Shown here: piece by piece, positions 3,826 through 25,731 of the stretch
Position numbering within the stretch: position 1 is the stretch's first letter
Layout: each line of letters opens with the position of its first letter
From: Candidatus Hadarchaeales archaeon
GTDB lineage: Archaea > Hadarchaeota > Hadarchaeia > Hadarchaeales > JAWBSP01
Direction of reading: 5' to 3'
Assembly: GCA_038842485.1 (NCBI GenBank)
Contig: JAWBSP010000013.1
Location: 1 to 32,160, forward strand
DNA: 32,160 nucleotides
Position numbers and translations under genes: made by a program
Notes under the pieces: generated by a model
Database searches by the model: none
Told to the model about the DNA's origin: nothing
The model's input: only the letters and a program-made list of their open reading frames with translations

Positions 3826-4008
3826 GTGTTACTATAGTAACACACGTTCGGCGGTTCGACATCATGCGGGGCTGGAGTGATGTTACTATAGTAACACCGA
3901 ACGTTGCGGACGCTTGAGCTCATAATTCAATAGCAACTCGCCGCGTGATGCGGTAAGCGGGAAGTGAGCGGTTGGATTTCAGAACGGCATGTGTTACTAT
4001 AGTAACAC
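3826..4008. repeat. Three copies of the 18-bp palindrome GTGTTACTATAGTAACAC
   Basis: Copies at 3826-3843 (perfect), 3880-3897 (G1A) and 3991-4008 (perfect); spacers 36 and 93 bp; between the trpS stop and the ppdK start. Confidence 0.97.
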
Positions 4009-4010
4009 AG

Positions 4011-5099
4011 CTAGTCCTTCGCGGCTTTTGCCAGCTCCAATGCCTTCGGGAGGAGGTTCTCCCTCCTGGTCTGAAGGGAGCCGAGGAAGCGACCGAGTAA
4101 ATCGATGGCCCGCCGCTTGCATTCGCCGCAGACCAGCTTTCCCGTCCTGCAGGACTCGGAGACTCTGGCCAGCTCGGCATCGTCCTCGATGAGGTGGTAG
4201 ACCATGAGCTCGAAAACCACGCACTGCTTGGGGTTGCCCCCAAGTTCGCGCTGTTCCTTCTCCGTCGGCTGTCCGCCCGTGAAAGCATCCCACACCTTCT
4301 TCCTGACCTCCTCCGCGGAATCCCCCAGCAGGATGGCGGTTTGGGGCTGGCTGCTCGACATCTTTCCCCCGGTGAGCCCCCTCATGAGCCTATGGTAGAT
4401 GGAGGAGGGAGGGACGAGGCCCGCCCTAGAGGCTAGATCTCTGGCGAGCCTGAGGTGCGGGTCCTGATCCACCCCAACCGGCACCACCGTGGGTCTAGGC
4501 CCCCCGAGCTCGGGCAGCTGCACGTGCAGAATGTCGGAGACATCAAGCAGGGGATAGAAGATGTGGGAAGCCTTGCTCTCCCCCGTGAAACCGTAAATGG
4601 CCCTCAGCTCGCTGAAGTTCACCATGGTACCGAGCGTGAGGGAGAGGTCCTTCACCCTCCTGCTCCTCGACTGGAAGTAGAGGTGACAGCGCTCGAGATC
4701 CAGACCCAAGGCGAGGTAGTTGGACAGGTATTCCTCAACCGCCACGCGCTCGGCCTCCTTCAGGGAGAGCCCGCGCATCACGTGAGCCTCCACGTCCGCC
4801 ACGCAAAGGAAGATCTCCGCCCCCCTCTCCTGGAACCACTTGAGCTCGTCTATCACCATCTTGTGTCCGAGATGCATGGGGCCGCTGGGCATGAGGCCGG
4901 TCATGACGGCGTAGGGGCTCCCTGACTTCATGGCCTCCAGTACTCTCCCGAAGTCCCTGTGTCCGAAGATGACGCCCCTCCTCATGAGGAGGTGGGGGTT
5001 TGGAATCTGCGGGAGGAGCTCGGGAAAGCTCTCGATTCCGAACTCCCGCATCAGCCTTTCGTAGTCGGCTGGCAGCTCACTCGCCCACGGGCTTATCAA
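4011..5099 (-). CDS. trpS: Tryptophan--tRNA ligase (archaeal type)
   Basis: PSGPMHLGH (HIGH), VPVGVDQDPH, KMSSS, AFTGG, CGECK. Confidence 0.96.
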   Translation of the reverse strand: MISPWASELPADYERLMREFGIESFPELLPQIPNPHLLMRRGVIFGHRDFGRVLEAMKSGSPYAVMTGLMPSGPMHLGHKMVIDELKWFQERGAEIFLCVADVEAHVMRGLSLKEAERVAVEEYLSNYLALGLDLERCHLYFQSRSRRVKDLSLTLGTMVNFSELRAIYGFTGESKASHIFYPLLDVSDILHVQLPELGGPRPTVVPVGVDQDPHLRLARDLASRAGLVPPSSIYHRLMRGLTGGKMSSSQPQTAILLGDSAEEVRKKVWDAFTGGQPTEKEQRELGGNPKQCVVFELMVYHLIEDDAELARVSESCRTGKLVCGECKRRAIDLLGRFLGSLQTRRENLLPKALELAKAAKD

Positions 5100-5608
5100 G
5101 GTTTCTCCCTCATGAGAGAGTAGTAGGTCACGTCTCCCTCATCGTCCACGACCCCAAAAAGCATCCCCTTCCTCACGCTCCTGGCGAGCCTAACCCCCCG
5201 CGCGAAGTCGGTTGGCGTGAGCTTGATCCACTCCGGAACGGCTTGAACGATGTACTTCGAGTGGGCCTCCCCGGGTTTCTCCCCGCGCTCGTAGACCCTG
5301 AAGTGAGCCCCAAACTTCAGCCCCGTTCGGACGATGTAGCCCCTCGAGCGGAGGTCGGAGTAAACGGCATACTTTAGGGAAAAGTCTGGATCCAGTTTGG
5401 TGAAATGGTCGATCAGCTCGATCGCCGAGAGCCTCCTCCCCTCCGCCTCCACCGCCAGCTTCCCCTTCTCCACCAGATACAGGGCCTCCACCGGGCAGAG
5501 CTGAAGGCCCCCCAGCGCGGGTTTCCCAAAAAAGCTCCTCTCCAGCTCCCCGGTCTCGCCAGTCACCATAACCCCGTGTTTGTGCAGGCGTCCCATCAGT
5601 TCCGCCAT
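5096..5608 (-). CDS. endA: tRNA-intron splicing endonuclease (short single-unit type)
   Basis: EALYL, VYSDLRSRGY, GLKFGAHFRVY, HS, RLARSVRK. ATG 5608 chosen; the track starts at 5611. Confidence 0.95.
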   Translation of the reverse strand: MAELMGRLHKHGVMVTGETGELERSFFGKPALGGLQLCPVEALYLVEKGKLAVEAEGRRLSAIELIDHFTKLDPDFSLKYAVYSDLRSRGYIVRTGLKFGAHFRVYERGEKPGEAHSKYIVQAVPEWIKLTPTDFARGVRLARSVRKGMLFGVVDDEGDVTYYSLMREKP

Positions 5609-5807
5609 CAAAACTGCTTGCTATGAATATGAAGTGTCGTGCCCGTCCCCCGCAATAAGTCGGACGGAAGATAGTAACCCGGAGACCTGATGCGAGTTCA
5701 TTTCTTTGCAGGTGACTTTTCCCGGCTTTCAAGAGGCTCGAATCCCCTCCTAACAGTTGGAAGCCCGCTTATCGGATCTACAAAGTTCACAACCCTACCT
5801 CTGAACC

Positions 5808-5948
5808 TTAGGAGGTTTTCATCTCTTGCGGAGAAACGCGCCTCGGCTTCCCCGTGTGCTCGGGATTCCAGCTCATGATCTCCTCAAGCCTCTTTTTGGC
5901 CCCTCCACCTTTCTCATTACCTCTCTCGTCAATAACCGCGATATATTT
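5808..5948 (-). pseudogene. Possible AbrB/MazE-type antitoxin remnant
   Basis: Startless frame KYIAVIDERG-NEKGGGAKKRLEEIMSWNPEHTGKPRRVSPQEMKTS*; the first 10 residues resemble the AbrB N-terminal motif but the rest of the domain is missing. Confidence 0.3.
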
Positions 5949-6018
5949 TGGGAATTTCCTGATTGCAGCGATAGAGTTGCTCTGGATTTGGTATGTCGTA
6001 GCATCTGGACATAGGGGG

Positions 6019-6093
6019 TGGGGTCGCTGGGATTTGAACCCAAGTCACCGGCTCCCGAAGCCGGCAGGATAGACCAGGCTACCCCACGACCCC
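6019..6093 (-). tRNA. tRNA-Pro(CGG)
   Basis: GGGGTCG acceptor stem, anticodon arm CCGGC-TT-CGG-GA-GCCGG, T-loop GGTTCAAATCC; CCA not encoded; no intron. Confidence 0.97.
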
Positions 6094-6096
6094 ATC

Positions 6097-7254
6097 CTAT
6101 TGTCCACCGCCTTCAATTTGCCTTCCGCTCCGCGATTCCATCAGCTTTTCCAGTTCGGGGATGAGCACCTCCACGGGGGCCTCCTCTATGCTCAGAAGGG
6201 TGAGCAGACCCTGACGCCTCTCCTGCTTGCTCCTGAGGAGACCCATCGCCCTCAGTCTTTCCAGGCACTCGCTGAACCGGTTGTAGCTCAGGGGCTTTTC
6301 CCCGTACTCCTCGCAAACCACCTGATACGTCCCATAAACCTCGGTGGAGGAGGCGTAGGCGGCGCGGGTGGACCGGAGCCTGCGCGCCAGCGCCAGCAGA
6401 GCAGTGGCTTCGTGGGGCCGCAGCTCGGCCAAGACGTGCCTCTTGAGCTCGGGATAGATGGAGGCCTTGGCTTCCCTGACGTGCTCCGGAAGGATTCTGG
6501 GCGCCATCCGCTGCTCCGCCAGACAGCCGGCCCTGTAAAGAACCTCCAAGGCGAACCTGGCGTCGCCCGTCCCGGAGGCCATGTCGGAAATGAGCCTCAG
6601 CACCTCCTCGTCCACTTTCCCGGGCTGAATCGCCTCCCCCGCCCTGAACACGAGGATGTCGAAGAGCTGCTCGCCCGAATAGCGGTCCAGTTCGATCAGG
6701 GTGTGCTGGAAGGTCGAACGGGTGGGAGCGTCAAGCCTGTTGAGGAAACCCCTGTCCCTGCATATTCCTATCAGGCCCAGTCTCCAGGCCGCTGGGTTCT
6801 GCTCCGGGTACCGGGTCAGCAGGTAGAGGAGATCCGGGCCCTCGACCTCCACCTGGTAGTCCAGCTCATCCAGGGTGAGGAGGAGCCTGCCCCCGTGTTT
6901 CTCCAGGTGGCTCACCAGCGTCCCGAGCATCTCCTCGACCGAGTACCCGCGGGAGGGAAAGGCGGGGAGGAGCTTCCTCACGGCCTCCAGCAGAATGAAG
7001 TAGGGAGAACGGGAAATCCTGCAATTCACGTGCACGTAGCTCACCCCCTTCCCCTCCATTTCCCTCCCGAAGAGGCGGGCCAGGGCGGTCTTACCCACCC
7101 CTACGCTCCCCAGCAGGAGGATCCGCTGGATGCACTGCCCCCGCAGGTAGCTCGAAAAGAACTTCCTGAGCTTTTCCAGTTCCTTCTCCCGGTGGGGCAG
7201 CCTGGGTGGCAGGTAGTCGGGGAGGAGCTTGGTGCGGTTCGAGAAAATTCCCAT
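6097..7254 (-). CDS. cdc6: Orc1/Cdc6 replication initiator
   Basis: IFSNRTKLLPDYLP..LPHRE, Walker A GSVGVGKT, HVNC, Walker B LTLDELD, GDAR, C-terminal winged helix. Start set to ATG 7254. Confidence 0.95.
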   Translation of the reverse strand: MGIFSNRTKLLPDYLPPRLPHREKELEKLRKFFSSYLRGQCIQRILLLGSVGVGKTALARLFGREMEGKGVSYVHVNCRISRSPYFILLEAVRKLLPAFPSRGYSVEEMLGTLVSHLEKHGGRLLLTLDELDYQVEVEGPDLLYLLTRYPEQNPAAWRLGLIGICRDRGFLNRLDAPTRSTFQHTLIELDRYSGEQLFDILVFRAGEAIQPGKVDEEVLRLISDMASGTGDARFALEVLYRAGCLAEQRMAPRILPEHVREAKASIYPELKRHVLAELRPHEATALLALARRLRSTRAAYASSTEVYGTYQVVCEEYGEKPLSYNRFSECLERLRAMGLLRSKQERRQGLLTLLSIEEAPVEVLIPELEKLMESRSGRQIEGGGQ

Positions 7255-7297
7255 CAGGTTCTCCGGCTGCGAGTTAAAGCATCCGAGCAAGGGAGAG

Positions 7298-7834: not shown

Positions 7835-7870
7835 GCGGGTGTTCATAAAAACCCGAGGGGGAAGGTTTGG

Positions 7871-8947
7871 GTGAGAAAAAAGCGCGCGCCTTCGGCGGTC
7901 GAAGGAACCTCGGAGACGAGCAGGAGAAAGGAATCCCAGCTCAGGATTTGTCTGAGCGAGGACGTGGAGATGAAGGAGGTACCGGGGTTCGGGCAGCTGC
8001 ACTTCGTTAACCTAGCGCTGCCCGAGCTGAACCTCGCGGACGTGAAAACCGAAATCCGGTTCCTCGGGAAGGAGCTCTCCGCCCCCCTGATCATCTCGGC
8101 CATGACCGGGGGCCACCGGGAGGGGGAAAGGATCAACAGGAGGATGGCCAAAATCGCCCAGGAGTTCGGGATCGCCTTCTGCGTGGGGAGCATGCATGCG
8201 GCCCTCGAGAGGCCTGAACTCGCCCGCACCTATCAGGTGAGGGATGTTGCCCCGGATGTCCTTCTGCTTGCGAACCTGAGCGCCTCCCAGCTCACGGAGG
8301 GGAAGGAGGTGGAGGAGGCGAGGAGGGCGGTGGAGATGATAGGGGCGGATGGGCTCTCCCTCCACCTAAACCCCCTCCAAGAAGCCATCCAGCCCGAGGG
8401 GAAACCGGTGTACGCGGGTGTCCTTTCCAAGATCCAAAGGGTCTGCTCGGGACTGGGAGTTCCGGTGATGGTTAAGGAAACCGGATGCGGGATAAGCGGG
8501 GAAATCGGGGAGAGATTGGAAAAGGCAGGGGTGTCGGCCATCGATGTAGCCGGGGCAGGGGGGACCTCTTGGGCGGCGGTAGAGGCGCTCAGAGGGGGTA
8601 GGCTGGGGAGAACCTACCGGGACTGGGGGATCCCGACTCCCGTCTGCGTGGCGGAACTGGCTAGGCGGGTCAGGGTTCCCATCGTAGCCGGAGGGGGGAT
8701 CAGATCGGGACTGGATGCCGCCAAGGCCCTCGCGCTGGGGGCTCACGCGGTTGCGATGGCCCTTCCCCTGCTCAGGAGCGCCTGGAAGGGGGAGGAGAAC
8801 CTCAGAGAGTTCCTGCGAGGTTTTATAGATGAACTCAGGCTTGCCATGTTCCTCACGGGTTGCAGGCGTGTGGAGGATCTCCGGAAAACCCAGCTCATAC
8901 CGGTTGGGGAGCTTGCCGACTGGTTCCGGGCTAGAAGGCTGATGTAA
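7871..8947 (+). CDS. fni: Type 2 isopentenyl-diphosphate isomerase
   Basis: ISAMTGG, HLNPLQEAIQPEG, VKETGCG, DVAGAGGTSW, GGIRSG. Confidence 0.96.
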   Translation: MRKKRAPSAVEGTSETSRRKESQLRICLSEDVEMKEVPGFGQLHFVNLALPELNLADVKTEIRFLGKELSAPLIISAMTGGHREGERINRRMAKIAQEFGIAFCVGSMHAALERPELARTYQVRDVAPDVLLLANLSASQLTEGKEVEEARRAVEMIGADGLSLHLNPLQEAIQPEGKPVYAGVLSKIQRVCSGLGVPVMVKETGCGISGEIGERLEKAGVSAIDVAGAGGTSWAAVEALRGGRLGRTYRDWGIPTPVCVAELARRVRVPIVAGGGIRSGLDAAKALALGAHAVAMALPLLRSAWKGEENLREFLRGFIDELRLAMFLTGCRRVEDLRKTQLIPVGELADWFRARRLM

Positions 8948-8952
8948 AACCT

Positions 8953-9196
8953 GTGTTACTATAGTAACACACCTCCCAGCTTTCGCGGAGGCTTCTACTA
9001 CGAGGACTTCAACTTGCGCCGGGATGGGGAAACGTGTGTTACCATAGTAACACGCGACCGTTGCGCTGTTTCGCCTCGCTCGCGAACGGTTCGGCGACTC
9101 ACGGAGGTGACCTGTGTTACTATAGTAACACACAAAGTAGACGTAAACTCGGTCGACTTTGGAGAGGGGGAGGGGCGTGTGTTACTATAGTAACAC
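8953..9196. repeat. Array of four 18-bp palindromes
   Basis: Copies at 8953-8970, 9036-9053 (T8C), 9114-9131 and 9179-9196; spacers 65, 60 and 47 bp. Confidence 0.97.
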
Positions 9197-9235
9197 GCTC
9201 GCTACACAGACAAATATCCACTTTTCCATTTTCCG

Positions 9236-9727
9236 ATGGGGGTGAAGGTGCTGGTTCTTTACTATTCGAGGGGAGGGAATACCAAAAGCATGGCGGAGGA
9301 GGTGGCGGCTGGAGCCAGGGAAGGTGGGGCCGAGGTGGTGCTCAAGAGCGTGGAGGAGGCGAAGGTGGAGGAAATGGTGGAAGCGGATGGGATCATTATA
9401 GGCAGTCCCTCCTACTTTGGTGGTCCCGCCGCCGAGGTCAAGCGGTTTCTGGACGAGTCGCTGCGGGTGAGGGGCAAGCTGGAGGGAAAGGTGGGTGCCG
9501 CCTTCTGTTCCTCCAGGCACCGCGCGGGTGGAAGGGAGACCACCATGCTTTCCATCCTGCAGTCCATGCTCATCCACGGAATGGTGGTGTGCGGGGATCC
9601 CCTTTCCACGGGCGGGCACTACGGGGCGGCGGCGAACGGTCCCCCGGATGAACAAGCCAAAAGGGAGTGCAGGGGTCTGGGGCGAAGGGTGGCCGAGCTG
9701 GCCGGGAGACTGAAGGTTGGACGTTGA
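9236..9727 (+). CDS. Flavodoxin / WrbA-like NAD(P)H-dependent oxidoreductase
   Basis: YYSRGGNT..MAE, ADGIIIGSPSYFG, GKVGAAF, GGRETT. Confidence 0.9.
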   Translation: MGVKVLVLYYSRGGNTKSMAEEVAAGAREGGAEVVLKSVEEAKVEEMVEADGIIIGSPSYFGGPAAEVKRFLDESLRVRGKLEGKVGAAFCSSRHRAGGRETTMLSILQSMLIHGMVVCGDPLSTGGHYGAAANGPPDEQAKRECRGLGRRVAELAGRLKVGR

Positions 9728-10736
9728 GACCCGCCTCCAGCTGGTGAGGGAGGTCGCCGAGGAAATAGTCACGGAGGAGGAGCTCAGGCACCTGCTCGAG
9801 ACGGAGGAGCATCCCCTCGCCTACGACGGTTTTGAGCCCTCGGGTCTGGCCCACCTCCCCTTCGGGATTTACCGGCCCTTCACCCTGAAGAAGCTCCTCA
9901 GGGCGGGTTTCAGGTTCAAGCTCCTGCTCGCGGACTGGTTCGCCTGGATCAACAACAAGCTTGGGGGGGATCTGGAGCGCATCAGGAGGGCCGGGGAGTA
10001 CTTCGTGGAGGTCTGGAAGGCGGCCGGTGTGCCGATGGATCAGGTGGAGATCCTGTGGTCCTCCGATCTCGTCCGCGACCCCGAGTACTGGAAGCTGGTG
10101 CTCTCCGTTGCCAAGCACCACAACCTGCGCAGAACGCTCAGGGCCTTGGACATCGCGGGGAGGGAGGGGAGCTTGGAAAATCCAACCGCCTGGATTTTCT
10201 ACCCCTGCATGCAGGTGGCCGACATTTTTTACCTGGGGGTACAGGTCTGCCAGCTTGGGATGGACCAGCGGAGGGCAAACATGCTCGCCCGCGAGGTCGC
10301 CCCGAAACTGGGGAGGAGGAAGCCCATCGCCGTGCACCACCACATGCTCATGAGCCTGAGGGGGAAAACGCCCGAGGAGAAGATGAGCAAGAGCAAACCG
10401 GAGACCTGCATCTTCGTGCACGACTCGAGGGAGGAGATTGAGCGGAAACTCAGGAAAGCCTACTGCCCGGAGCGCGACCCCTCGAACCCCGTGGTGGACT
10501 ACGTTAAGCATCTGGTTTTCCCGGCCTTCGGGGAGCTTAGACTCGAGCTCAAATCTGGGGAGGAGGTTTCCTTTGGTAGCTTCGCCGAATTCGAAAAGCA
10601 GTACGTTGCCGGAAAGATACATCCTCTGGATTTGAAGCAGGGGTTGGTGGAGTACTTGGATCGGCTGGTTTCACCCATCAGGGAGCACTTCAAGAGTCCT
10701 CAGGGTATGGCCTACCTTTCCGTTCTAGAAGCCTGA
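9717..10736 (+). CDS. tyrS: Tyrosine--tRNA ligase (archaeal type)
   Basis: YDGFEPSG, ADWFAWIN, YPCMQVADIF, LGMDQR, KMSKS, IHPLDLK. Confidence 0.96.
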   Translation: MDVETRLQLVREVAEEIVTEEELRHLLETEEHPLAYDGFEPSGLAHLPFGIYRPFTLKKLLRAGFRFKLLLADWFAWINNKLGGDLERIRRAGEYFVEVWKAAGVPMDQVEILWSSDLVRDPEYWKLVLSVAKHHNLRRTLRALDIAGREGSLENPTAWIFYPCMQVADIFYLGVQVCQLGMDQRRANMLAREVAPKLGRRKPIAVHHHMLMSLRGKTPEEKMSKSKPETCIFVHDSREEIERKLRKAYCPERDPSNPVVDYVKHLVFPAFGELRLELKSGEEVSFGSFAEFEKQYVAGKIHPLDLKQGLVEYLDRLVSPIREHFKSPQGMAYLSVLEA

Positions 10737-10846
10737 CCCCCCTCTTTCTAGTGGAGAACCCCTGCCCTTCCAGAATTACCCTATGTTACTATAGTAACAC
10801 AAGGAGGCGGTATGGATGATGGAAACTTCCAGTGGAAAGAAGGGGG
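10737..10846. promoter_or_regulatory. Inverted pair of ORB-like boxes with the 18-bp palindrome at the exact centre (candidate origin or initiator-binding site)
   Basis: TTCCAGTGGAAAGAAGGGGG at 10827-10846 (+); CTCCACTAGAAAGAGGGGGG at 10756-10737 (-); palindrome at 10783-10800, 26 bp from each box. Confidence 0.5.
10783..10800. repeat. 18-bp palindrome copy
   Basis: ATGTTACTATAGTAACAC, directly followed by the RBS-like AAGGAGG. Confidence 0.95.
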
Positions 10847-11334
10847 TGTGGGCCAAGATCATCAGTTTCGATCTGGGGGCGACTGGTTCAAAAAAAGTCA
10901 AATTCTATCGCCAGCTGTTTGGGTTTCACAGCACCAGAAGGAGGGGAACCCAGACCCGCAGGGTTTTCACCCCCGGAATTCTCTCCAAAATCCCCCATCT
11001 GGTTTTGGGAAAAAGCGTGGTGGCGGTTCCCCCAGAGGCGTGCTCCCAGCTCTTGGATTTTCTCTCAAACCCCCAGTGGAAACCCATTCAGGTTCATGTG
11101 GTTGATGGCCTGCTTTCCGCGGAGCAGGTCAGGCGCGCCGTGGAGGAATTTTTCAGCCGGCCCGTCAGGCTCACGGGGGGAGAAGTGCCCCTCTCCCAGG
11201 CGGTGCGGGCGGTTTCAAGGAGGGATGCCGGGGACCCCGACCGGAGGTTTGTGGAAAGGCTGCTCGATCAGCTGGGGCGGTTCGAGTGGCTTAAGGAGGC
11301 GGTTCGGCGGGCGAAAGAGGAGCTGAGCAGGTGA
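10816..11334 (+). CDS. Hypothetical protein; N-terminal half resembles a Cas2/PaaX-central ferredoxin-like fold
   Basis: RBS AAGGAGG at 10801; pattern KIISFDL..KKVKFYRQLFG..GIL..LGKSVVAVP..LLDFL. Alternative start GTG 10846. The fold call is by eye only. Confidence 0.7.
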   Translation: MMETSSGKKGVWAKIISFDLGATGSKKVKFYRQLFGFHSTRRRGTQTRRVFTPGILSKIPHLVLGKSVVAVPPEACSQLLDFLSNPQWKPIQVHVVDGLLSAEQVRRAVEEFFSRPVRLTGGEVPLSQAVRAVSRRDAGDPDRRFVERLLDQLGRFEWLKEAVRRAKEELSR

Positions 11335-12179
11335 GTTCCGTCGCAGCTGGGGGAGGTGTTTAGCTCCTTCAATCCCTCCCTGCAGGTTGAGAAGGTGAGA
11401 CCGAAACGCTCGCAGGCTTCCCTCACCCTCAGCAGGAGCCGCCTGCGGAGGGAAAGGGGCAGATATCTGGCTCTACCGTGCCTCTCGCCCTCTCGGTAGT
11501 ACAGTTCGCGCGTTCGCTGACAGAACTCTGGAAAGGCTAGCATCATTCTTTGCCAAGCATCGGGCCTTGGTTTGAAGGTGGAGGCCGTGATGTGCACCGC
11601 CCCCGCTCCAGCGGCCGCCCCGACGATTTCCTCAATTTCCTCCTCGTTCAGGCCGGGGAAGAGGGGGTCAAGCCGAACGGTCACGGGGATTCCCCGCGAG
11701 GAAACCGCCTGAATCGCCCTCAATCTCTCAGCGGGTGCTGGTGCCCGGGGTTCCAGTTTGGAGGCAAGCTGGCGGTTCAGGGTGGTAAGGGTGAAACTCA
11801 CCACCGCCCTCATCCCCTCCAGCAGATCGAGATCCCCGACGACGAGGTTGGACTTGGTGATGATTTGAACCGCGAAACCCGCTTGGGCGAGGGCCTGTAA
11901 GCATTTCCTCGTTAGGTGGAGCCTTCCCTCCATTGGTGGGTAGGGATCACTCGAGTTGCTCAGGCTGACGGGGAGACGCCGGTCCAGCTTGGGGAGCTCT
12001 GCTCTGATTCTCGCGAGCAGGTCCCGCTTCGGTCTACAGTTGAAGGCCCGGGGGATGTAGGAGGTGATGTAGCAGTAGAGGCAGTGATGCTGGCAACCGG
12101 TGTAGGGGTTCAGGGAGTATTTTCTCGGACAGGTACAGAGTGGATCTCCCCAAGGATCGAACTCGGTAATTACCCTCAT
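11268..12179 (-). CDS. Radical SAM protein, SPL-like family
   Basis: LNPYTGCQHHCLYCY, SDPYPP, IITKS, LEPRAP..ERL, RLDP; its 3' end overlaps the convergent gene. Confidence 0.92.
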   Translation of the reverse strand: MRVITEFDPWGDPLCTCPRKYSLNPYTGCQHHCLYCYITSYIPRAFNCRPKRDLLARIRAELPKLDRRLPVSLSNSSDPYPPMEGRLHLTRKCLQALAQAGFAVQIITKSNLVVGDLDLLEGMRAVVSFTLTTLNRQLASKLEPRAPAPAERLRAIQAVSSRGIPVTVRLDPLFPGLNEEEIEEIVGAAAGAGAVHITASTFKPRPDAWQRMMLAFPEFCQRTRELYYREGERHGRARYLPLSLRRRLLLRVREACERFGLTFSTCREGLKELNTSPSCDGTHLLSSSFARRTASLSHSNRPS

Positions 12180-12194
12180 TTTCTCCTCGCTCGC

Positions 12195-12212
12195 GTGTCA
12201 CTATAGTAACAC
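12195..12212. repeat. 18-bp palindrome copy
   Basis: GTGTCACTATAGTAACAC, 15 bp upstream of the radical SAM start. Confidence 0.93.
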
Positions 12213-12320
12213 AGGTTTTCGGTCTGGGAGAAATAATTTGTGCTGGATTAGGGCAGGCAGTTTGTAAGCTTGGTAATCTGAATCCCAAAAATATTTTAAA
12301 TTCTTGGTAATTGAATTCCC

Positions 12321-12517
12321 AACCTCTGGTGGGACAACGAGCGCTGGCAGGAGAAGGATCCAGATTTAAAAAGATGGTCGCGGGCGTGCGGTGGGTCCCA
12401 ACCATACTCGAGAAAATCGAGTTGAAACCTCCCACCGTTCATTTTCTGCTTGGACCCAACGGAGGAGTTCAGCCGGGAGGTTCCATTGTGCCGGTGAGCC
12501 TTTTCCTCACCTGTTTG
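12321..12517 (+). pseudogene. Remnant of an archaeal AAA_14/DUF4143-type ATP-binding protein
   Basis: NLWWDNERWQEKDPDLKRW / frameshift / VRWVPTILEKIELKPPTVHFLLGP, breaking at Walker A, then the C-terminal-like IVPVSLFLTCL. Confidence 0.6.
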
Positions 12518-12565
12518 ACCCCTCAAGATATGAGCTGGAATCTACCCCGCGGCAATTCAGCTGGT

Positions 12566-12885
12566 TTATGCCTTAATCTCGATTCCTTCCTTTAAGGCCT
12601 CCGAGACTAGGGAAACTTTCGTCTTGAGTCTCTGAAACTCCTCCGGGGTATATGGAATGAAATCCACAGGTTTTTGGAGCTTCCATTTAAGCCAGAGTCC
12701 CCTGAGCCTTTCGAAAAAGTTCTTGCCCTCGAAACTTTTACTTATGAGGATCAGGTCAGGTCAATATCACTCCATTCTTTTGAAGTCCCTCTTGGAAGCG
12801 ACCCGAATAAAATCGCTTTTTCTATCCCGGCTTCACGCAGAAAGCTCCTGATCTGCTCCACTACTTCAGGCGCGACACGGCCCAT
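12566..12885 (-). pseudogene. Minimal nucleotidyltransferase (MNT antitoxin), frameshifted
   Basis: MGRVAPEVVEQIRSFLREAGIEKAILFGSLPRGTSKEWSDIDL / 5-bp tandem duplication TCAGGTCAGG at 12751-12760 / ILISKSFEGKNFFERL..PVDFIPYTPEEF..EALKEGIEIKA*. Removing 5 bp restores a 104-aa ORF. Confidence 0.88.
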
Positions 12886-12986
12886 TCCGTCACCTCGGCC
12901 ACTCCCAGTCTTCCCTCTGAAAAATTGAACCTGGCGTCGTCCAAGTCTTTCCTCGCTGCATTCAGCCGAGAATCAATCTCCTCCAT
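12861..12986 (-). pseudogene. HEPN toxin remnant (internally deleted)
   Basis: 41 aa MEEIDSRLNAARKDLDDARFNFSEGRLGVA-EVTEWAVSRLK*: HEPN-like first helix joined to a last helix, overlapping the MNT start. Confidence 0.7.
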
Positions 12987-13146
12987 CGTAGTTTCCGCCC
13001 GCTTTCTAATCTCTTTCCGCCCACATGGAAGGTTTCAAAGCAGGCACATGGCGAGGGAAAGAATTTGCGCGAAAGAGAGCAAAAACCGACAGTTTTCTAA
13101 AGACATGCATGCTGTATCCTCACCAGCTCCCTTCTTGGTGTAAAGT

Positions 13147-14043
13147 TTACCTGTGGGCGAGTCCCACGAGCTCCTCCACCGACCTGAAACCGCCCCGTTT
13201 GAGGTAGGCCTCCACCCCCTCGCGGATTTTTCCGAAGATCTCCACTCCCTCCACGGCCACGGCGGAGCCCACTTGGACGGCCCTCGCCCCCGCAAGCAGG
13301 AATTCCACCACGTCTCTCCACTCCATCACACCCCCCGAGCCGATGAGGGGGATGGAGAGGTGCTCGAAGAGCTCGTAGACGCACCTCACGGCGATGGGCC
13401 TCAGCGCCGGTCCCGAAAGCCCCCCGTACCTGTTTGAGAGGACGGGCCTCCTAGTTTCAACATCGATGAGCATGGATCTCACGGTGTTGATGGCCACCAC
13501 CGCCTCCGCCCCTCCCTCCTCGCAGGCCAGCGCCGACTCCAGCAGACGGTCACAGAGCCCCAGCTTCGCCCAGACGGGGATGCCCACCGAGCTCACCCTC
13601 CTCACGATTCTCCCCACCAGCGAGGGATCCTGTCCGATTTCCAGCCCCCTTCGCTCCGCATGCGGGCAGGAGAGGTTCAGCTCCACGGCATCGGCCCCAG
13701 CCCCCGCCGCCATTTCGGCCATCTTGCCGAACTCCTCCTCGCTCGATCCGGCCAAACTGACCACCACCGGAACCCCTCCCTGCTTGGCTAGGGGCAGCTC
13801 GTTTCTCAGATACTCCTCACATCCGGGGTTGGAGAGCCCGACCGCGTTGATGAGTCCCCCCTCGAATCCGACCACCACAGGAGTGGGGTAGCCCTCCCTA
13901 GGCTCGAGCGTCAGGCTCTTGGTTACCACCGCCCCGGCCCCCGCCTCGGCCGCCCTCCTGAGAAGGGAGCCGTGGGAGAGGATGCCCGAGGCCAGGACTA
14001 GGGGGTTTCCGAGTTCCAGCCTCCCGATTTTGACCGCTAGCAT
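13147..14043 (-). CDS. pyrD: Dihydroorotate dehydrogenase, catalytic subunit (class 1B)
   Basis: NPLVLASG, VTKS, NAVGLSNPG, ELNLSCPH, AINT, GGLSG. Start set to ATG 14043. Confidence 0.96.
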   Translation of the reverse strand: MLAVKIGRLELGNPLVLASGILSHGSLLRRAAEAGAGAVVTKSLTLEPREGYPTPVVVGFEGGLINAVGLSNPGCEEYLRNELPLAKQGGVPVVVSLAGSSEEEFGKMAEMAAGAGADAVELNLSCPHAERRGLEIGQDPSLVGRIVRRVSSVGIPVWAKLGLCDRLLESALACEEGGAEAVVAINTVRSMLIDVETRRPVLSNRYGGLSGPALRPIAVRCVYELFEHLSIPLIGSGGVMEWRDVVEFLLAGARAVQVGSAVAVEGVEIFGKIREGVEAYLKRGGFRSVEELVGLAHR

Positions 14044-17997: not shown

Positions 17998-18020
<23 letters not shown>

Positions 18021-18747: not shown

Positions 18748-18835
18748 GTGTTACTTAGTAACATCGGTTTTTGCGGCCGTGTTACTATGGTAACATCGAC
18801 CGGCTTCGGGACGCTAGGTGTTACTATAGTAACAC
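18748..18835. repeat. Three copies of the 18-bp palindrome
   Basis: 18748-18764 (1-bp deletion, C18T), 18779-18796 (A11G, C18T), 18818-18835 (perfect); spacers 14 and 21 bp. Confidence 0.95.
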
Positions 18836-19131: not shown

Positions 19132-19137
19132 TAAAGA

Positions 19138-20248: not shown

Positions 20249-20290
20249 ATAAAAAATTTGAGAGATTGTATGAGTACCTAGCGCATGTGT

Positions 20291-20308
20291 GAGTTACTAT
20301 GGTAACAC
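20291..20308. repeat. 18-bp palindrome copy (2 mismatches)
   Basis: GAGTTACTATGGTAACAC, between the amylase fragment stop and the ROK start. Confidence 0.88.
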
Positions 20309-20314
20309 TGGCCG

Positions 20315-20644
20315 CTACAGTTTGGCATATATTTTTCCTTCCCTCGGCGCCAGAGTAACCTGAATGGTTCTATCCTGACCAACGGTTATTCTTTCCTCGG
20401 TGTTCAGAAGGTTTGTCAACACGGTTCCGGGGGCGAAGCTATCGGGAAGGGTTATGGTCCTGCTCTGCTGCGAGGGGGAGTTGTTGAGCACCACGAGTGT
20501 TTGGTTCTCCCCGTAGACCCTCCTGTAAGCATAGATGGCCGTCTCCCTGTACACCTCAATCTGGCTTCCCCTCCTCAGCTCTATACGATCTTTCCTTATC
20601 TGGCAGAGCTTCTGGATGAGTTTGTAAGTGTCCGTGATCTCCAT
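20315..20644 (-). pseudogene. C-terminal fragment of a GH13 alpha-amylase/CGTase-like gene
   Basis: YKLIQKLCQIRK..LRRG..IYAYRR..LVVLNN..LTNLL..VTLAP: last barrel helix plus C domain; catalytic core absent. Confidence 0.75.
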
Positions 20645-20749
20645 AAGCCCTCCATGGCACCGCTTCTGATTGCCGTGGTCATCGTGGTTGTCGCCGTCAT
20701 CCTGCTCGTGACCTTCAGACGACCAAAACGACGGGGAAAATCCAGATAG
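20645..20749 (+). pseudogene. Orphan C-terminal membrane anchor (or a 31-aa membrane peptide from ATG 20654)
   Basis: KPSMAPLLIAVVIVVVAVILLVTFRRPKRRGKSR*: TM helix plus basic tail typical of surface-protein ends. Confidence 0.5.
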
Positions 20750-20795
20750 CCAACTGGAAGGGCTGAGGGGTTTGAAATAGGAAAGGAAGAATTGG

Positions 20796-21284
20796 ATGTC
20801 AGTCAAGCCCGTGCTCGCCTTGACGCTCACCTGCCTGGTTTGGGGTTTCGTGCTTGGTTACGTGCACCACCTGACCCAACCGAGGATAGAGGAGGCCGAG
20901 CGGAGGGAGATGGCGACGAGGCTCTCGGAAATCTTTCCGGGTTGCGAGTTCGTGGAGGAAAATGGAATCTTTCTCTGCTACCGGGAAAACCAGCTTGTGG
21001 GAAGGGCGCTCGAGGTGAGGGGGAAGGGCTACGGTGGGGAGATGAGGATCTTGGTCGGGATAAACCTGGACAAAACCGTCAGGGGGGTGAGGGTCCTCTC
21101 GCACTCCGAGACCAAGGGGATAGGGTCTAGGGCGGCCGAGCTCCCATACCTCTCCCAGTTCGAGAACCTGTCACTGAACCAGCTAGCCTTCAGGCCCGAG
21201 GGAAAAATAGAGGCGGTGAGCGGTGCCACCGTGAGCTCGAGGGCGATCCTGGAGGCGGTGAGGAGGGCGCTGGAGCATGCCTGA
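20796..21284 (+). CDS. rnfG: Rnf complex subunit G (FMN-binding)
   Basis: N-terminal TM, KGYGG, HSETKGIG, flavinylation motif VSGATVSS. Confidence 0.92.
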   Translation: MSVKPVLALTLTCLVWGFVLGYVHHLTQPRIEEAERREMATRLSEIFPGCEFVEENGIFLCYRENQLVGRALEVRGKGYGGEMRILVGINLDKTVRGVRVLSHSETKGIGSRAAELPYLSQFENLSLNQLAFRPEGKIEAVSGATVSSRAILEAVRRALEHA

Positions 21285-22458: not shown

Positions 22459-23249
22459 TCGGGGAGCCCCTCACTCTGGCACTGGTGGGGTTTGGGTTCG
22501 CCCTTCTGCTGGTCTGGGCCTCCAAGCGTTTTGCCGTGCAGGTGGATGAGCGGCTGGAGGAGGTGAGGGGGATGCTTCCCGGTGCCAACTGCGGGGCGTG
22601 CGGGTACAAGGGGTGCGAGGACTTCGCCCGGGCACTCGTGGGAGATCCCGCCCTGCTGGGTCAGTGCAGGGTCTTGGCGCCTGCCGAGAGGGCGAGGATA
22701 GCGTCCTACTTGGGGGCGAAGCTCTCGGTCGAATGGGCGGCGGCAGTAGCGGCCTGCTCTGGGGGAAGCAAGGTGGCGTTCGGGTATGCGGGAGAGCGGA
22801 GCTGTCTTGCGGCCTCCCTTCTACAGGGCGGTCCTACTCTCTGCAGGTTTGCCTGTCTTGGGTTCGGGGATTGCGAGAAGGTCTGCCCTTTTGGGGCTAT
22901 ACGGATGGTGAACGGGCTCCCCCAGGTGAATTGGAGGAAATGCACCGGATGCGGTCTCTGCGTGAAGGCCTGTCCGAGGGGGGTCATGGTCCTACTGCCG
23001 AGAAATGCCAAGGTCTACGTCAAGTGTATCTCCCCCGAGCCCGGAAAGCTGGTTGCCACCTCTTGCACCAAAGGGTGTATCAAGTGCAGGCTTTGCGAGC
23101 GCAACTGTCCGAGGGGGGCGATAAAATTCGTGGGGGACAGGATTTCCATCGACTCAACTCTCTGTGACGGGTGCGGGAAGTGCGTGGAGGTCTGCCCGAG
23201 GAAGTGCATCGTGTGGATCCAGCGTCCCGTTCCCCTCCCGGTCAGATGA
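22455..23249 (+). CDS. rnfB: Rnf complex subunit B (polyferredoxin)
   Basis: LPGANCGACGYKGC, CLGFGDC..VCP and further CxxCxxCxxxCP motifs. Confidence 0.94.
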   Translation: MIGEPLTLALVGFGFALLLVWASKRFAVQVDERLEEVRGMLPGANCGACGYKGCEDFARALVGDPALLGQCRVLAPAERARIASYLGAKLSVEWAAAVAACSGGSKVAFGYAGERSCLAASLLQGGPTLCRFACLGFGDCEKVCPFGAIRMVNGLPQVNWRKCTGCGLCVKACPRGVMVLLPRNAKVYVKCISPEPGKLVATSCTKGCIKCRLCERNCPRGAIKFVGDRISIDSTLCDGCGKCVEVCPRKCIVWIQRPVPLPVR

Positions 23250-23470
23250 GGTACGAGGTTGAGGTGAGGTTCGGTAGGGAATTTCTGGAGGTTTGCGGCA
23301 ACAAGATCTCGATTGGGCTCACCTCGAGGCCGGAGGGGGGAAAGGCGAACTTGGAGCTGGTCAAGAAGCTCGCCAAGCACTTCGGCGTCCCCTCCACTCA
23401 AGTCAGAATCGTTTCAGGCTTCACCTCTAGGAAGAAAGTGGTTGAAATCGTTGCATGTTCAACAAAATAA
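23246..23470 (+). CDS. DUF167 (UPF0235/YggU) protein
   Basis: PEGGKANLELVKKLAKHFGV..IVSGFTSRKK; ATGA overlap with the rnfB stop. Confidence 0.92.
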   Translation: MRYEVEVRFGREFLEVCGNKISIGLTSRPEGGKANLELVKKLAKHFGVPSTQVRIVSGFTSRKKVVEIVACSTK

Positions 23471-23482
23471 GTGAGAACTCGA

Positions 23483-23500
23483 GTGTTACTATAGTAACAT
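23483..23500. repeat. 18-bp palindrome copy
   Basis: GTGTTACTATAGTAACAT, between convergent genes. Confidence 0.95.
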
Positions 23501-23568
23501 CATTTCTGGGGATTGTGCACGGATTCACCGGGTTTCTGAGAAACTTCCCTTGGTCTCACCCGAATAAA

Positions 23569-23652
23569 GTTCCGTTATAGTGGTAATCTTGCTTAGAAAC
23601 TTTACCGCTATAGTGGTAAAATATACAGTTGGCTTCTCCACTATAGTGGCAA
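23569..23652. repeat. Three copies of a second palindrome (consensus TTACCACTATAGTGGTAA) at a 33-bp period
   Basis: 23569-23586 GTTCCGTTATAGTGGTAA, 23602-23619 TTACCGCTATAGTGGTAA, 23635-23652 TCTCCACTATAGTGGCAA; unrelated 15-bp spacers. Confidence 0.85.
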
Positions 23653-25731
23653 TCACACAACCAGAAGCCCCCAATTTTCAGTTTGTAGAAGGTTCCCGCT
23701 AGAGTCGACGAACAGACCGAATGCCCCAAGACGCTCGAGCAGAAGCCTCCCGTTTTCGGGTCCCAGCACGAAGGAGGCGGTGCTGAGGGCATCCGCGTCC
23801 ATCCCCCGGCTCGCCACCACCGTCACGCTCTGGCACTGGGTGGCGGGCTCCCCCGTTCTCGGGTCGATGATGTGGTGAATCCTTCTGGCCCCGAGGAAGT
23901 AAACCCTGACGTAATCGCCAGAGGTCGAGACCGCGCCCTCGCTCAGCTCGATGGTCTGGAGGATCTCCTCGGGCTTCCTGGGGTGCTGGATCCCTATCCT
24001 CCAGGGTTTGCCGAAGACCCTGATTTCGCCACCTATCTGGACCATTCCAGCCTCCACCCTCGAGCGGAGGATCTCGCAGGCAAGGTCGGCTGCGTAACCC
24101 TTCGCAATCCCGCCCAGCGTCACCTGCATCCCCTCTTTTAAGAATCTCGCCCTCCCGTTCTCCAAGACTAGGGCCCTCCAATCCACGAGTTCCCGTGCCC
24201 CTTGAAGTTCGGAGGTCGAGGGAAGCCTGCCCCTCTCCTTTACCTTCTTCATCCAGAGGTCGACCAGAGGCTTCACGGTGGGGTCGAAGGCGCCGTCCGA
24301 GAGTTCGGCGTAGCGCAGTGCCTCTTGGAGCACCTGGTAGGTTTTGGGCGAGAGCTCCACCCATTCGGTCCCGGAATGGTTTAGCTTCCAGATTTCTGTT
24401 CCCTCCTTCTCGCAGGAGAGCAGGTCCTCCAGCTCGTGTACCTCCCGCAGCGCCAGCTGGACGGCCTCTCTTGCCTTCTCCAAGTTTTCATCGCACGCAG
24501 TGATGCGCACGAAGGTGTCCATGGCGAGATCCTCGGCCCTTACGTAATCCCGGCCGAACTCGAAGCGCGGGAGGGAAAGGTGGGAGACGAGCACAGGAAG
24601 CAGAACCAAGAGACAGGCGGCCCCGACGGCGGCTCTCCTGCGTTCCCTTCCGAGCCTTGGGATGAGGATGAGGAGGATGGTGAGGAGGCACTGGGTGAGG
24701 AGGAAGCTTGCCGCGAGCCCGGTCAGCCCGAACCTTCGCCCGAGCGCCACGACCGAGAGAAGCTGGAGGGGGACGGTGATGGCGTAGGCCGAGGAAGTAC
24801 TGGCGGGGCTTTGTTCGGAGAGGAGTTCGGCGGAGCAGACTTGGGAGAGGGTGGCGGGAACCAGTGCGAGGAGCATCAGCTGGAAGGCGCGGAGCGAGCC
24901 CGAGTAGTCAGGGAAAAGACGGGGGAGGAGGAGGGAGAAGCCAAGCCCGCCCGCGAGAAGGAGGAGGGAGGATTTCAGGGCGAGCGAGCGCATGCCCTTG
25001 GACTGGGTGGAGAGGGAGTAGAAGAAAAGGGTCTGGGGGAGGGCAGCGAACAGGTAGAGGAGACGGGAGGAGAAGTAGTAGAGGCCTAGGATCTCCATTC
25101 CAAGCAGGTGCCCGGCCACAACCTTGTCCAGGAAGCCCAGGGAGGCCGAACCGAGATCGGTGAGGAGGTAGCCGGCAAGTTTTGGTGTTACTATGGCAAC
25201 ACGCGCGTTTTGCTTCGGTGCTGATGTTACTATAGTAACACTCGGGCGGGACAGAACTGCCAGCGAGGGGAGAAAGTGGGCGAGGAAAAGGCCGAGGAAG
25301 ATTGCCCAAGTTTGTTGGAGCAACAGATAGAGGAGAAGGGGGAGGATGAGGAGAGCGGAGCGAGCGATCCAGAGCCTGAGGTACCCCGAGAAGTTCTTCC
25401 GCGCAAGCTGAAGGTGGAAGGAGAGGGAGAAGAGGGAAAATCCGAGGACGAGCAGACCGGCTCCAGGGTGAAGGAGGGTGAGGGGAAGACCCAGAGCGGT
25501 CGAGGAAATCAGCGTCAGGTACAGGGAACGCTCGGGATCCGGGAACTTGGAAACGATGAGCGACTTCCCTAGGCCGAGGGAGGCAATCGTCGAGAGGAGC
25601 ATGGAGATTGAAAAGAAATAGCCAACTTCCCCGAAGGCAAAGGGGTGCAGGAGGAGAGCCAGAACAAGCCAGAAGAGGCTTCCCGAGAGAGTAGCCATCG
25701 CTTGGGCCAGTGCAATGATTTTCATCTTCAT
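23653..25731 (-). CDS. apbE: Fusion of a MOP/Wzx-like multi-TM transporter (N) and an ApbE FAD:protein FMN transferase (C)
   Basis: N-half polytopic (FGEVGYF..SLGLG, LDKVVAGHLLGMEILGLYYFS); C-half AMDT, SDGAFDPTV.PL..LW, LGGIAKGYA, GGEI, STSGDY, HHIIDPRTG, ADALSTA. Confidence 0.9.
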   Translation of the reverse strand: MKMKIIALAQAMATLSGSLFWLVLALLLHPFAFGEVGYFFSISMLLSTIASLGLGKSLIVSKFPDPERSLYLTLISSTALGLPLTLLHPGAGLLVLGFSLFSLSFHLQLARKNFSGYLRLWIARSALLILPLLLYLLLQQTWAIFLGLFLAHFLPSLAVLSRPSVTIVTSAPKQNARVAIVTPKLAGYLLTDLGSASLGFLDKVVAGHLLGMEILGLYYFSSRLLYLFAALPQTLFFYSLSTQSKGMRSLALKSSLLLLAGGLGFSLLLPRLFPDYSGSLRAFQLMLLALVPATLSQVCSAELLSEQSPASTSSAYAITVPLQLLSVVALGRRFGLTGLAASFLLTQCLLTILLILIPRLGRERRRAAVGAACLLVLLPVLVSHLSLPRFEFGRDYVRAEDLAMDTFVRITACDENLEKAREAVQLALREVHELEDLLSCEKEGTEIWKLNHSGTEWVELSPKTYQVLQEALRYAELSDGAFDPTVKPLVDLWMKKVKERGRLPSTSELQGARELVDWRALVLENGRARFLKEGMQVTLGGIAKGYAADLACEILRSRVEAGMVQIGGEIRVFGKPWRIGIQHPRKPEEILQTIELSEGAVSTSGDYVRVYFLGARRIHHIIDPRTGEPATQCQSVTVVASRGMDADALSTASFVLGPENGRLLLERLGAFGLFVDSSGNLLQTENWGLLVV
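25185..25241. repeat. Two 18-bp palindromes inside the coding sequence
   Basis: 25185-25202 GTGTTACTATGGCAACAC and 25224-25241 ATGTTACTATAGTAACAC; read in frame as SVTIVTS and RVAIVTP. Confidence 0.93.

Follow-up and report, generated by a model that had tools for sequence, protein, structure and literature searches.

The parS/ParB, matS/MatP and SlmA/Noc systems are built on near-perfect palindromes of 13-18 bp that are present in tens of copies, carry an excess of information, mark one chromosomal domain, for parS the one around the origin, and lie beside functionally unrelated genes. How chromosomes are organised and segregated in Archaea outside the Sulfolobales is largely open, and the only site families found described in the literature consulted are SegB sites, the AspA site of plasmid pNOB8 and HpaB sites. 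According to a study of the Sulfolobales SegAB system (bioRxiv 10.1101/2025.02.07.637068), which also summarises parS in its introduction, SegB sites are palindromic, occur in 32-46 copies in or beside unrelated genes with peak enrichment near segAB and oriC1, and are proposed to couple chromosome organisation with segregation; the 13-bp motif, TCTAGASTCTAGA, has an invariant AGA-S-TCT core, is ~83% intragenic and is kept across genera. Here we describe an 18-bp palindrome, GTGTTACTATAGTAACAC, designated S, that is dispersed over a contig from a Candidatus Hadarchaeales archaeon (JAWBSP010000013.1, here C13). The whole contig, 32,160 bp, is the window analysed, and the genome to which it belongs (G000) consists of 943 kb in 27 contigs and is 89% complete. 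S is a compact, sequence-defined site family that brackets a predicted replication origin in three species of this uncultured hot-spring lineage. Like SegB sites, S is an archaeal palindromic site family with enrichment near an origin and unrelated neighbours; unlike them, it has the core GTTACYATRGTAAC, is extragenic in 31 of 34 cases, is present in one genus only and has species-specific edges.

With up to two mismatches to GTGTTACTATAGTAACAC allowed, the window contains 15 matches, six perfect, six with one change and three with two, and a tolerance of three mismatches adds no further S. The site at 18748 is a 17-bp form, GTGTTACTTAGTAACAT, in which one central base is missing. A previous reading of the letters alone, here the sequence-only reading, had counted 16 copies, six perfect, six with one change and four with two; all 16 are real, with 18748 a deletion variant, so that the tally becomes 6, 6 and 3 for the 15 full-length copies plus this variant. 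Its consensus, RTGTTACYATRGTAACAY, agrees with base counts over the genome copies, scans at both tolerances bear out that no S follows 25241, and its description of the placements also holds, in that the adjoining genes are unrelated, one copy separates the stop codons of rnfB and the ApbE-fusion gene, and two lie within the reading frame of the latter. The copies, with the open reading frames (ORFs) and coding sequences (CDS) that they adjoin, are as follows.

3826..3843, S, perfect; 57 bp from the start of the pyruvate phosphate dikinase (PPDK) ORF (1114-3768, minus strand)
3880..3897, S, one change (ATG...CAC)
3991..4008, S, perfect; 2 bp off the stop of a class-I W/Y tRNA synthetase ORF (4011-5099, minus strand)
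8953..8970, S, perfect; 5 bp past the stop of an FMN-dependent dehydrogenase-like ORF (7871-8947, plus strand), opening a four-copy array
9036..9053, S, one change (centre CCATAG)
9114..9131, S, perfect
9179..9196, S, perfect; 39 bp ahead of the flavodoxin ORF start (9236)
10783..10800, S, one change; between two inverted origin recognition box (ORB)-like elements
12195..12212, S, one change; 15 bp from the start of a radical SAM ORF (11268-12179, minus strand)
18748..18764, 17-bp variant GTGTTACTTAGTAACAT with a 3-bp centre; the variant core is also present in a second species, G002
18779..18796, S, two changes; upstream of the pyrF-pyrE-pyrB-pyrI... operon (start 18717, minus strand)
18818..18835, S, perfect
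20291..20308, S, two changes; between the ROK kinase start (20248, minus strand) and the stop of an amylase C-domain fragment (20315)
23483..23500, S, one change; between the rnfB stop (23249) and the ApbE-fusion gene stop (23653)
25185..25202, S, two changes; inside the ApbE-fusion CDS (23653-25731, minus strand), in an in-frame extra segment present in G000 only (...RVAIVT...)
25224..25241, S, one change; codons 164-169 of the ApbE-fusion CDS (SVTIVT), the orthologous codons in G001 and G002 reading SVTMVT

No match to S at up to two mismatches occurred in 100 dinucleotide-preserving shuffles of the window. DNA near-identical to this stretch is present in hot-spring metagenomes of seven studies, and contigs from three other studies (X5, X6 and X7) hold the stretch with 0-4 differences per piece listed, the X5 piece spanning 8118-10962. 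The presence of the copies on these contigs, and of the motif at orthologous places in two sister species, shows that S did not arise through faulty assembly, a possibility that the sequence-only reading had set out for checking; together with the shuffles, this excludes both chance and artefact as the source of S. In a strain ~95% identical, the array upstream of the flavodoxin gene has three S rather than four. Two runs labelled metatranscriptomic, which are marked as probably DNA, also contain a ~95% relative, as contigs only, and no RNA data were found among the datasets listed as containing the stretch.

The scan was extended to the whole genome and to relatives, as had been proposed with the original observation. 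G000 has 34 S in total (up to three mismatches), on eight contigs, and S is the commonest 12-mer family of this genome. All but three of these are outside called ORFs and, of the three, one probably lies upstream of an over-extended start; the ORF and start-codon calls are rough, and the ORF set covers 89% of G000. A seven-copy array with 52-64-bp spacing is present on contig C18, and no sequence outside the 18 bp is common to the G000 copies. The genus comprises three species, and their genomes G000, G001 and G002 contain the core GTTACYATRGTAAC 30, 25 and 13 times, respectively. A search of 63 other genomes of the phylum found no instance of it, and a reversed control pattern had 0-1 occurrences per genome.

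In all three species, the densest cluster of S, extending ±6 to ±14 kb, is centred on a copy that is flanked by ORB-like elements. In the window, these elements and the genes close to them are the following.

6097..7290, minus strand, gene for the Orc1/Cdc6 initiator; the ORB pair is 3.5 kb away
10737..10759, ORB-like element whose G-string reads on the minus strand; a C-run followed by TCTTTCTAGTGGAGAAC, an inverted ORB, immediately preceded by the stop codon (10734-10736) of the tyrosyl-tRNA synthetase (TyrRS)-type gene
10816..11334, plus strand, gene for a 172-amino-acid protein without a Pfam family; the S centre is 24.5 bp ahead of its start
10827..10846, plus strand, ORB-like element, TTCCAGTGGAAAG-AA-GGGGG

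Both elements match the euryarchaeal ORB consensus, GTTCCAGTGGAAAC-AAA----GGGGG, as quoted in PMC1868953, and the element at 10827..10846 is the sole exact TCCAGTGGAAA in the genome with a five-G run within 3 bases. The G000 cluster comprises 15 of the 34 copies, plus the variant, at 3826-25241 around the ORB-S-ORB arrangement at 10737-10846. In G001, 10 of 25 copies lie at C3:20634-38442 around position 32417, with the other ~132 kb of the contig free of S and, in G002, six of 13 lie at C4:2347-12237 around 6320, with the other ~51 kb free of S. ORB-like elements also flank the orthologous S in the other two species, where the motif scan detected two in G002 and only one in G001. The same neighbourhood (radical SAM, 172-amino-acid protein and TyrRS genes) in a genus without S, represented by G028, has two ORB-like elements around a stretch of 65-69% A+T; in G000, the stretch between the elements is not A+T-rich apart from S. 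Along the 150-kb C3 contig of G001, cumulative GC skew is lowest at 40-50 kb; cdc6 lies at 47.7 kb and the ORB pair at 32.4 kb. We also considered, and rejected, an origin immediately upstream of cdc6, where there is no ORB and the DNA is occupied by an ORF that its HExxH-type motif marks as archaemetzincin-like. A second Orc1/Cdc6 paralogue is encoded on C6 of G000. The gene for the 172-amino-acid protein is present in 35 of 65 genomes and is kept beside the ORB pair in other genera; within the genus, the protein has 58-59% identity and evolves faster than its neighbours.

The outer bases of S differ between the species. In G000 the edges are RTG...CAY, with T next to the core at 59 of 60 half-sites and then G or A (40 and 20 half-sites) one base further out; in G001, S is extended to a 24-bp palindrome, TGTCTGTTACYATRGTAACAGACA, with the extension bases present in 44-49 of 50 cases; in G002 the edges are GCG...CGS, with C at 20 of 26 half-sites. 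Four places are shared by all three species, namely the gap between the TyrRS-type and 172-amino-acid protein genes, the region upstream of the flavodoxin gene (4, 1 and 2 copies in the three species), the region downstream of rnfB, and codons 164-169 of the ApbE-fusion gene; upstream of rnfG and of pyrG, S is retained in two of the three. At every shared place the orthologous copies bear the outer bases of their own species, and the copy between the ORBs keeps a CTATAG centre in all three. The ApbE-fusion gene encodes a conserved membrane-domain/ApbE fusion protein, and the second, degenerate G000 copy lies in a lineage-specific, in-frame extra segment. When aligned with four other genera, which lack S (G016, G010, G003 and G034), the loop that contains the shared in-CDS copy has the same length to within about one residue and an unrelated sequence, the row for a fifth genome, G013, being blank across this stretch. 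The in-CDS copy therefore arose, or was rewritten, in place and was not inserted. With the orthologous copies following the species version and the in-CDS copy adding no length, the sites are read and selected, not merely inserted. Selection on the sites, and their co-variation between species, are thus evident, and these comparisons of sequence indicate that S is read by something that co-evolves with its sites. The information content, with the 14 core positions fixed by the way in which sites were picked, is 34-44 bits, against the ~15 bits needed for this number of sites in 1 Mb. The 25 G001 copies have the centres CATG (11), TATG (8), CATA (5) and TATA (1); a function of the central TATA as a TATA box was rejected, as G001 favours CCATGG (CATG or TATG in 19 of 25).

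The explanation that we tentatively favour is that S is a selected, co-evolving family of protein-binding sites with a centromere-like or boundary role around the predicted origin; the inferred parts of this explanation are the protein nature of the reader, the activity of the ORB pair as the origin and the organising role of S. A sequence-specific DNA-binding protein would recognise two GTTAC half-sites approximately one helical turn apart, acting as a symmetric dimer or through two flexibly linked domains, and would co-evolve with S. The variant with a 3-bp centre is present in both G000 and G002, and a further palindrome family of G000, P4, has the half-sites in an everted arrangement; such a flexible half-site arrangement suggests modular reader proteins. 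S would mark the boundaries of genes and operons, packed within ±6 to ±14 kb of the predicted origin and with one copy exactly between the inverted ORBs, and the bound protein could build a centromere-like or macrodomain-like nucleoprotein domain around oriC and might also block transcription leaving gene ends. A more elaborate version would make S part of a new archaeal origin-domain or centromere system, in which a fast-evolving dimeric reader nucleates on the ORB-flanked copy and the ~10-15 copies within ±6-14 kb, organises or segregates the origin region and, at gene ends, acts additionally as a boundary or roadblock; the reader might be a winged-helix protein that has converged on the eukaryotic X-box, with other palindrome families marking further domains through paralogous readers. 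We consider this fuller version rather improbable as a whole.

Several observations weigh against the favoured explanation. No reader protein was found and no partition ATPase-adaptor pair was tied to S, with no search made for a SegB orthologue; the ParB_N domain (PF02195) was detected in none of the three genus genomes (89-92% complete, the scope of all domain searches here) and in 10 of 14 known genomes used as a positive control. The assignment of the ORB pair at 10737-10846 as oriC is a prediction from its sequence and not a mapped active origin and, in G001, cdc6 is 15 kb away from this pair and the skew minimum, located with 5-kb bins, is 8-13 kb away. In G000, 19 of the 34 copies are on seven other contigs, and 22 copies in G001 and G002 are outside the clusters, at places where the G000 orthologues of the flanking genes have no S within 1 kb. 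Among 38 S-bearing gaps in the three genomes, 24 are between tandem, nine between convergent and five between divergent genes, with 19.9, 7.1 and 11.0 expected from the available length, a distribution not significantly different from random placement (chi-square P about 0.10). The distance from the S centre to a called start is promoter-like, 44-57 bp in 10 of 34 cases and 24 bp in two, an observation to which we attach less weight, the starts being rough calls. Finally, a single origin-linked role cannot explain all of the palindrome families in G000, and so the phenomenon may be more general, with several regulators or several repeat families. The proposal of the sequence-only reading that S serves chromosome organisation or segregation therefore stands in part: the clusters centre on an ORB-flanked S in all three species and the sites are not confined to promoters, but ParB_N is missing and the motif is unlike the SegB site. 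In the comparison with cdc6 and GC skew that it suggested, the skew minimum of G001 is beside cdc6 and the ORB pair is some way off that minimum.

The promoter-like distances are as expected if a global transcription factor, such as a small dimeric protein of the winged-helix type, uses S as its operator at many promoters and gene ends to repress, activate or roadblock transcription, with the clustering at the origin then reflecting where the target operons lie; we regard this as possible but doubtful. An 18-bp palindrome with half-sites one helical turn apart has the usual format of a helix-turn-helix dimer site, and the single G001 copy between the divergent flavodoxin and rnfG genes is 48.5 and 47.5 bp from their respective starts. 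The retention upstream of the flavodoxin, rnfG and pyrG genes and the sugar-related functions of several neighbours (PPDK, ROK kinase, GH31, GH106 and the amylase fragment) point the same way, the species-specific co-variation fits co-evolution of a regulator with its operators, and the presence of several palindrome families per genome fits several regulators. In addition, one G001 gene, encoding a 90-amino-acid protein with a coiled coil plus a winged helix-turn-helix (wHTH), has S and a second palindrome just upstream. The gene is inserted relative to G000; the second palindrome, of ~25 bp (AAsTGTTTrT...AyAAACAsTT), lies 4-17 bp from S at ~7 of the 25 G001 sites (L013, L017, L019 and L020).

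An operator does not, however, account for the pairs of S in convergent gaps of only 126 bp (G000:C8) and 134 bp (G001:C3), where there is no room for a promoter, for the under-representation of divergent gaps or for the copy kept within a CDS. The neighbours have no common function and include PPDK, two tRNA synthetases, flavodoxin, the pyr operon, ROK kinase, rnfGEAB, thioredoxin reductase, PdxT, glycosidases and TIP49. The number of copies per gap is free, as in the four, one, two and, in the ~95% strain, three copies at the flavodoxin gene, the 22 off-cluster sites of G001 and G002 are at non-orthologous places, and the information content far exceeds the needs of an operator. A classical regulon is unlikely, given that S is found between convergent genes, immediately past stop codons and next to genes of unrelated function; the copies are not confined to the promoters of linked genes, with nine of the 38 gaps convergent and one copy conserved in a CDS.

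Positions close to stop codons are over-represented: of the 42 gene ends that S faces, 17 have it at a distance of no more than 22 bp, against 9.2 expected (P about 0.002). This position, and the extragenic location of nearly all copies, are also features of repetitive extragenic palindromic (REP) sequences. In PMC3733652, REPs are described as extragenic palindromes past gene ends that are clustered, present as several families per genome, species-specific and occasionally located in genes; families without a dedicated transposase are reported, and the definition requires a GTAG or CGTC tag at one end of an imperfect hairpin of 20-40 bp. That S is a selfish repeat of this type, or one resembling a miniature inverted-repeat transposable element, which multiplies in non-coding DNA with the four other palindrome families as its sisters, is in our judgement unlikely. 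Like REPs and bacterial interspersed mosaic elements, S is extragenic, clustered and variable between strains and species; its arrays have unrelated spacers, several families coexist in one genome, and one of these, P2, is patchy, with matches in 8 of 65 genomes. Furthermore, in six cases inspected, genes that abut or overlap in G000 are split in G001 or G002 by S-bearing spacers of 85-900 bp, and shuffled synteny blocks have S at their junctions. In-gene repeats and transposase-less families both have precedents in the same source (PMC3733652).

S is nevertheless unlike the REPs that depend on an associated tyrosine transposase. The consensus sequences of G000 (18 bp) and G001 (24 bp) both lack GTAG and CGTC, S is a perfect palindrome of 14-24 bp in place of the imperfect hairpin of that definition, as quoted, and the Y1 (HUH, IS200/IS605-type) transposase domain, PF01797, was found in none of the three genomes, with no candidates at first look. 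No flank is shared by the G000 copies, the in-CDS copy adds no length, the orthologous copies match the consensus of their species, which is not expected of passive copies, and the clustering at the ORB pair is kept in all three species. Of the REP-like option in the sequence-only reading, the after-stop position, the arrays and the turnover between species are thus supported, and the missing HUH transposase and tag, together with the in-CDS copy, speak against it. The comparison of orthologous loci that had been proposed for this purpose yielded no empty site at the in-CDS copy, only a loop of near-identical length and different sequence in the four S-less genera.

Gene order in the origin region (3769-25731, compared with L008 and L009 of G001 and L010 of G002) is shuffled in operon-sized blocks, with S at most junctions, and pyrG, which adjoins the S cluster in G001 and G002, sits on another contig in G000. 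Two of these rearrangements would fit a role of S as a crossover site, at which a site-specific recombinase would invert or shuffle modules of operon size near the origin: rnfGEAB is inverted in G001 relative to G002, with S at both ends, and the ROK and radical-SAM genes, adjacent and divergent in G001 and G002, are apart in G000, where both of the junctions thus created have an S. S is also reminiscent of resolvase site I in the AT dinucleotide at its centre and, in G001, in its TGTCTGTTA outer arm. Breakpoints at operon borders are, however, expected in any case, S being at most such borders here, and arrays of 4-7 copies are alien to known inversion systems. The resolvase (serine recombinase) domain, PF00239, was above the cut-off in none of the three genomes, and tyrosine recombinase (Phage_integrase, PF00589) was found in G001 only. 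Recombination thus emerges as the weakest of the three options of the sequence-only reading, and we consider it very improbable.

Equally improbable, in our estimation, is a role at the RNA level, in which S would form a 7-10-bp hairpin in leaders or at the 3'-ends of transcripts and affect stability or processing. Its position directly after stop codons and the continued complementarity of the species-specific outer bases would be consistent with such a role, but the symmetry runs through the centre, which is unneeded for a loop, and positions 8 and 11 vary independently, in the manner of two half-sites. One-sided changes show no preference for G-U pairs on the transcribed strand (the pattern is mixed), a stem of 43% G+C, as in G000, is weak for a hot-spring organism, and the ORB-flanked copy and the copies in divergent gaps would be left unexplained.

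Of the co-occurring partner genes suggested with the original observation, ParB_N and HUH transposases were found in none of the three genomes and a tyrosine recombinase in one. There are 13 ParA/MinD-like matches in G000, and none of these was linked to S. The RFX domain, PF02257, has no match over 27 bits in the three genomes; the best RFX_DNA_binding matches are to a mobile-element-like protein present in G001 only (24.1 bits) and to the winged helix of Cdc6 (14.9 bits). The former is a 236-amino-acid protein with a sub-threshold RFX-type winged helix, encoded in a low-complexity cluster of small membrane protein genes (L027, G001:C13:2345-5485) that looks like a virus or plasmid remnant. 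A 678-amino-acid protein without a Pfam family, encoded on C18 and flanked by eight S, was rejected as the reader as it is found in 16 of 65 genomes, including other genera, and was missed in G001 with this query; it has no sequence match in the PDB. The origin-adjacent 172-amino-acid protein is likewise only a positional suspect, being not genus-specific and without a recognisable DNA-reading domain; its model, with a predicted local distance difference test score (pLDDT) of 90, is most like a Cas2-type ferredoxin fold (probability 0.8, E 0.33) with a helical tail, a single-sequence model is poor, and there is no PDB fold match at E 0.001. Each species has an AAA_14/DUF4143 ATPase gene with S upstream, but the paralogue concerned is not the same one, and a palindrome is lacking near most of the ~8 paralogues of G000; among TrmB-type wHTH genes, just one, in G001, adjoins S. 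In G000:C6:51784-51899, the gap between a gene for a 240-amino-acid wHTH protein and those for anaerobic ribonucleotide reductase activase/NrdD, there are several direct and inverted copies of GTAACA(C/T), the S half-site.

S is not the only palindrome of this type in G000. Four further families of perfect palindromes, P2, P3, P3b and P4, were identified, with the cores TGCGAACGTTCGCA (20 occurrences), TGCACACGTGTGCA (11), TGCGCACGTGCGCA (10) and TGTAACACGTGTTACA (13); 51 of these 54 are intergenic by the rough ORF calls and they form arrays of up to nine. They sit on C2, C3, C9, C11, C12, C16, C18, C21, C23 and other contigs, with none in the window, and adjoin the genes for EF-1alpha, FolD, RFC, HSP20 and others, with no gene family common to their neighbours. 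P4 (TGTAACACGTGTTACA) consists of two S half-sites everted. The genomes with P2 (TGCGAACGTTCGCA) represent 5 of 19 genera, and its spacers upstream of EF-1alpha are fixed at 56-58 nt, with a faint common pattern by eye. G028 has a family of its own, GATACAYGTGTATC, with two related copies (12-mer matches) at its ORB region. Arrays formed by tandem duplication were rejected, as Tandem Repeats Finder (score 30) reports no S or P2 array and the spacers are unrelated, and no consistent boxes were found in the spacers that would identify C/D-box small RNAs. A CRISPR-like array was also rejected: the conserved part has 18 bp, against at least ~23 bp for CRISPR repeats, there is no shared flank, Cas1 is present in G001 only, and single orthologous copies are dispersed.

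Some other features of the window deserve mention. The 0.9-kb non-coding stretch (50% G+C) that borders S at 12195 contains ORF fragments (12751-12986, minus strand) of nucleotidyltransferase type (FGS..RG...SDIDL) and HEPN-like, and looks, from these fragments, like a decayed toxin-antitoxin (HEPN/MNT-like) pair. A 171-amino-acid ORF (20315-20830, minus strand) has a match solely to the alpha-amylase C-terminal domain and probably represents the remains of a gene, left where a rearrangement joined two blocks. The two class-I W/Y-type tRNA synthetases (4011-5099, minus strand, and 9717-10736, plus strand) have 29% mutual identity, and each gene has S just past its stop codon. The end of the window (28000-32160), where G+C falls to 47-53%, contains a tRNA-Arg gene (30401-30476) and a weak NucS-like ORF, is free of S and is possibly an integrated element. 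An Rfam search of the window returned two tRNAs alone, and nothing in 12100-13250 up to E 1.

S provides an 18-24-bp bait, and three natural specificity variants, to which a reader protein could be matched. If one of the more ordinary explanations holds, S would still be a clear case of operator-regulator co-evolution, or a family of palindromic repeats in Archaea without a transposase.

A full-text literature search for the four core 14-mers returned a single match, a paper on the C. elegans X-box (PMC3245922), in which one of the four occurs once and Table 1 lists GTTGCTATAGCAAC and GTTTCCATGGTAAC. The 14-bp core of S is letter-for-letter a validated C. elegans X-box, the site of RFX winged-helix proteins. 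The X-box has two 6-bp halves of GTNRCC type with 2-3 bases between them, 14-15 bp in all, and S has a matching shorter form, the 13-bp core GTTAC-TTA-GTAAC; the RFX DNA-binding domain, as noted, is below the Pfam cut-off in the three genomes. The motif, which the sequence-only reading did not recognise, is identical in its core to a eukaryotic site, a likeness rather than membership that may reflect convergence or chance. The stoperators of cluster A mycobacteriophages and the yeast Abf1 and Reb1 sites likewise combine large numbers, a high information content and a location at gene boundaries, co-evolving with a single reader and preventing read-through, and Abf1 also binds replication origins; their likeness to S, the former being of phage and the latter of eukaryotes, is in function only. 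One S lies within the ORB pair, where other genera have an A+T-rich stretch, but S is not an ORB, as it has a different sequence, is fully symmetric and is dispersed over more than 20 kb and on other contigs. S resembles parS in that its main cluster is near the predicted origin in all three species and in being a near-perfect palindrome beside unrelated genes; it differs from parS and matS in sequence, in avoiding coding DNA, where parS and matS are often located, in having approximately half of its copies on other contigs, and in the absence of ParB_N from the three genomes. By analogy, the nearest working counterparts of S would be the parS, matS or SegB-type site families and roadblock or boundary sites.

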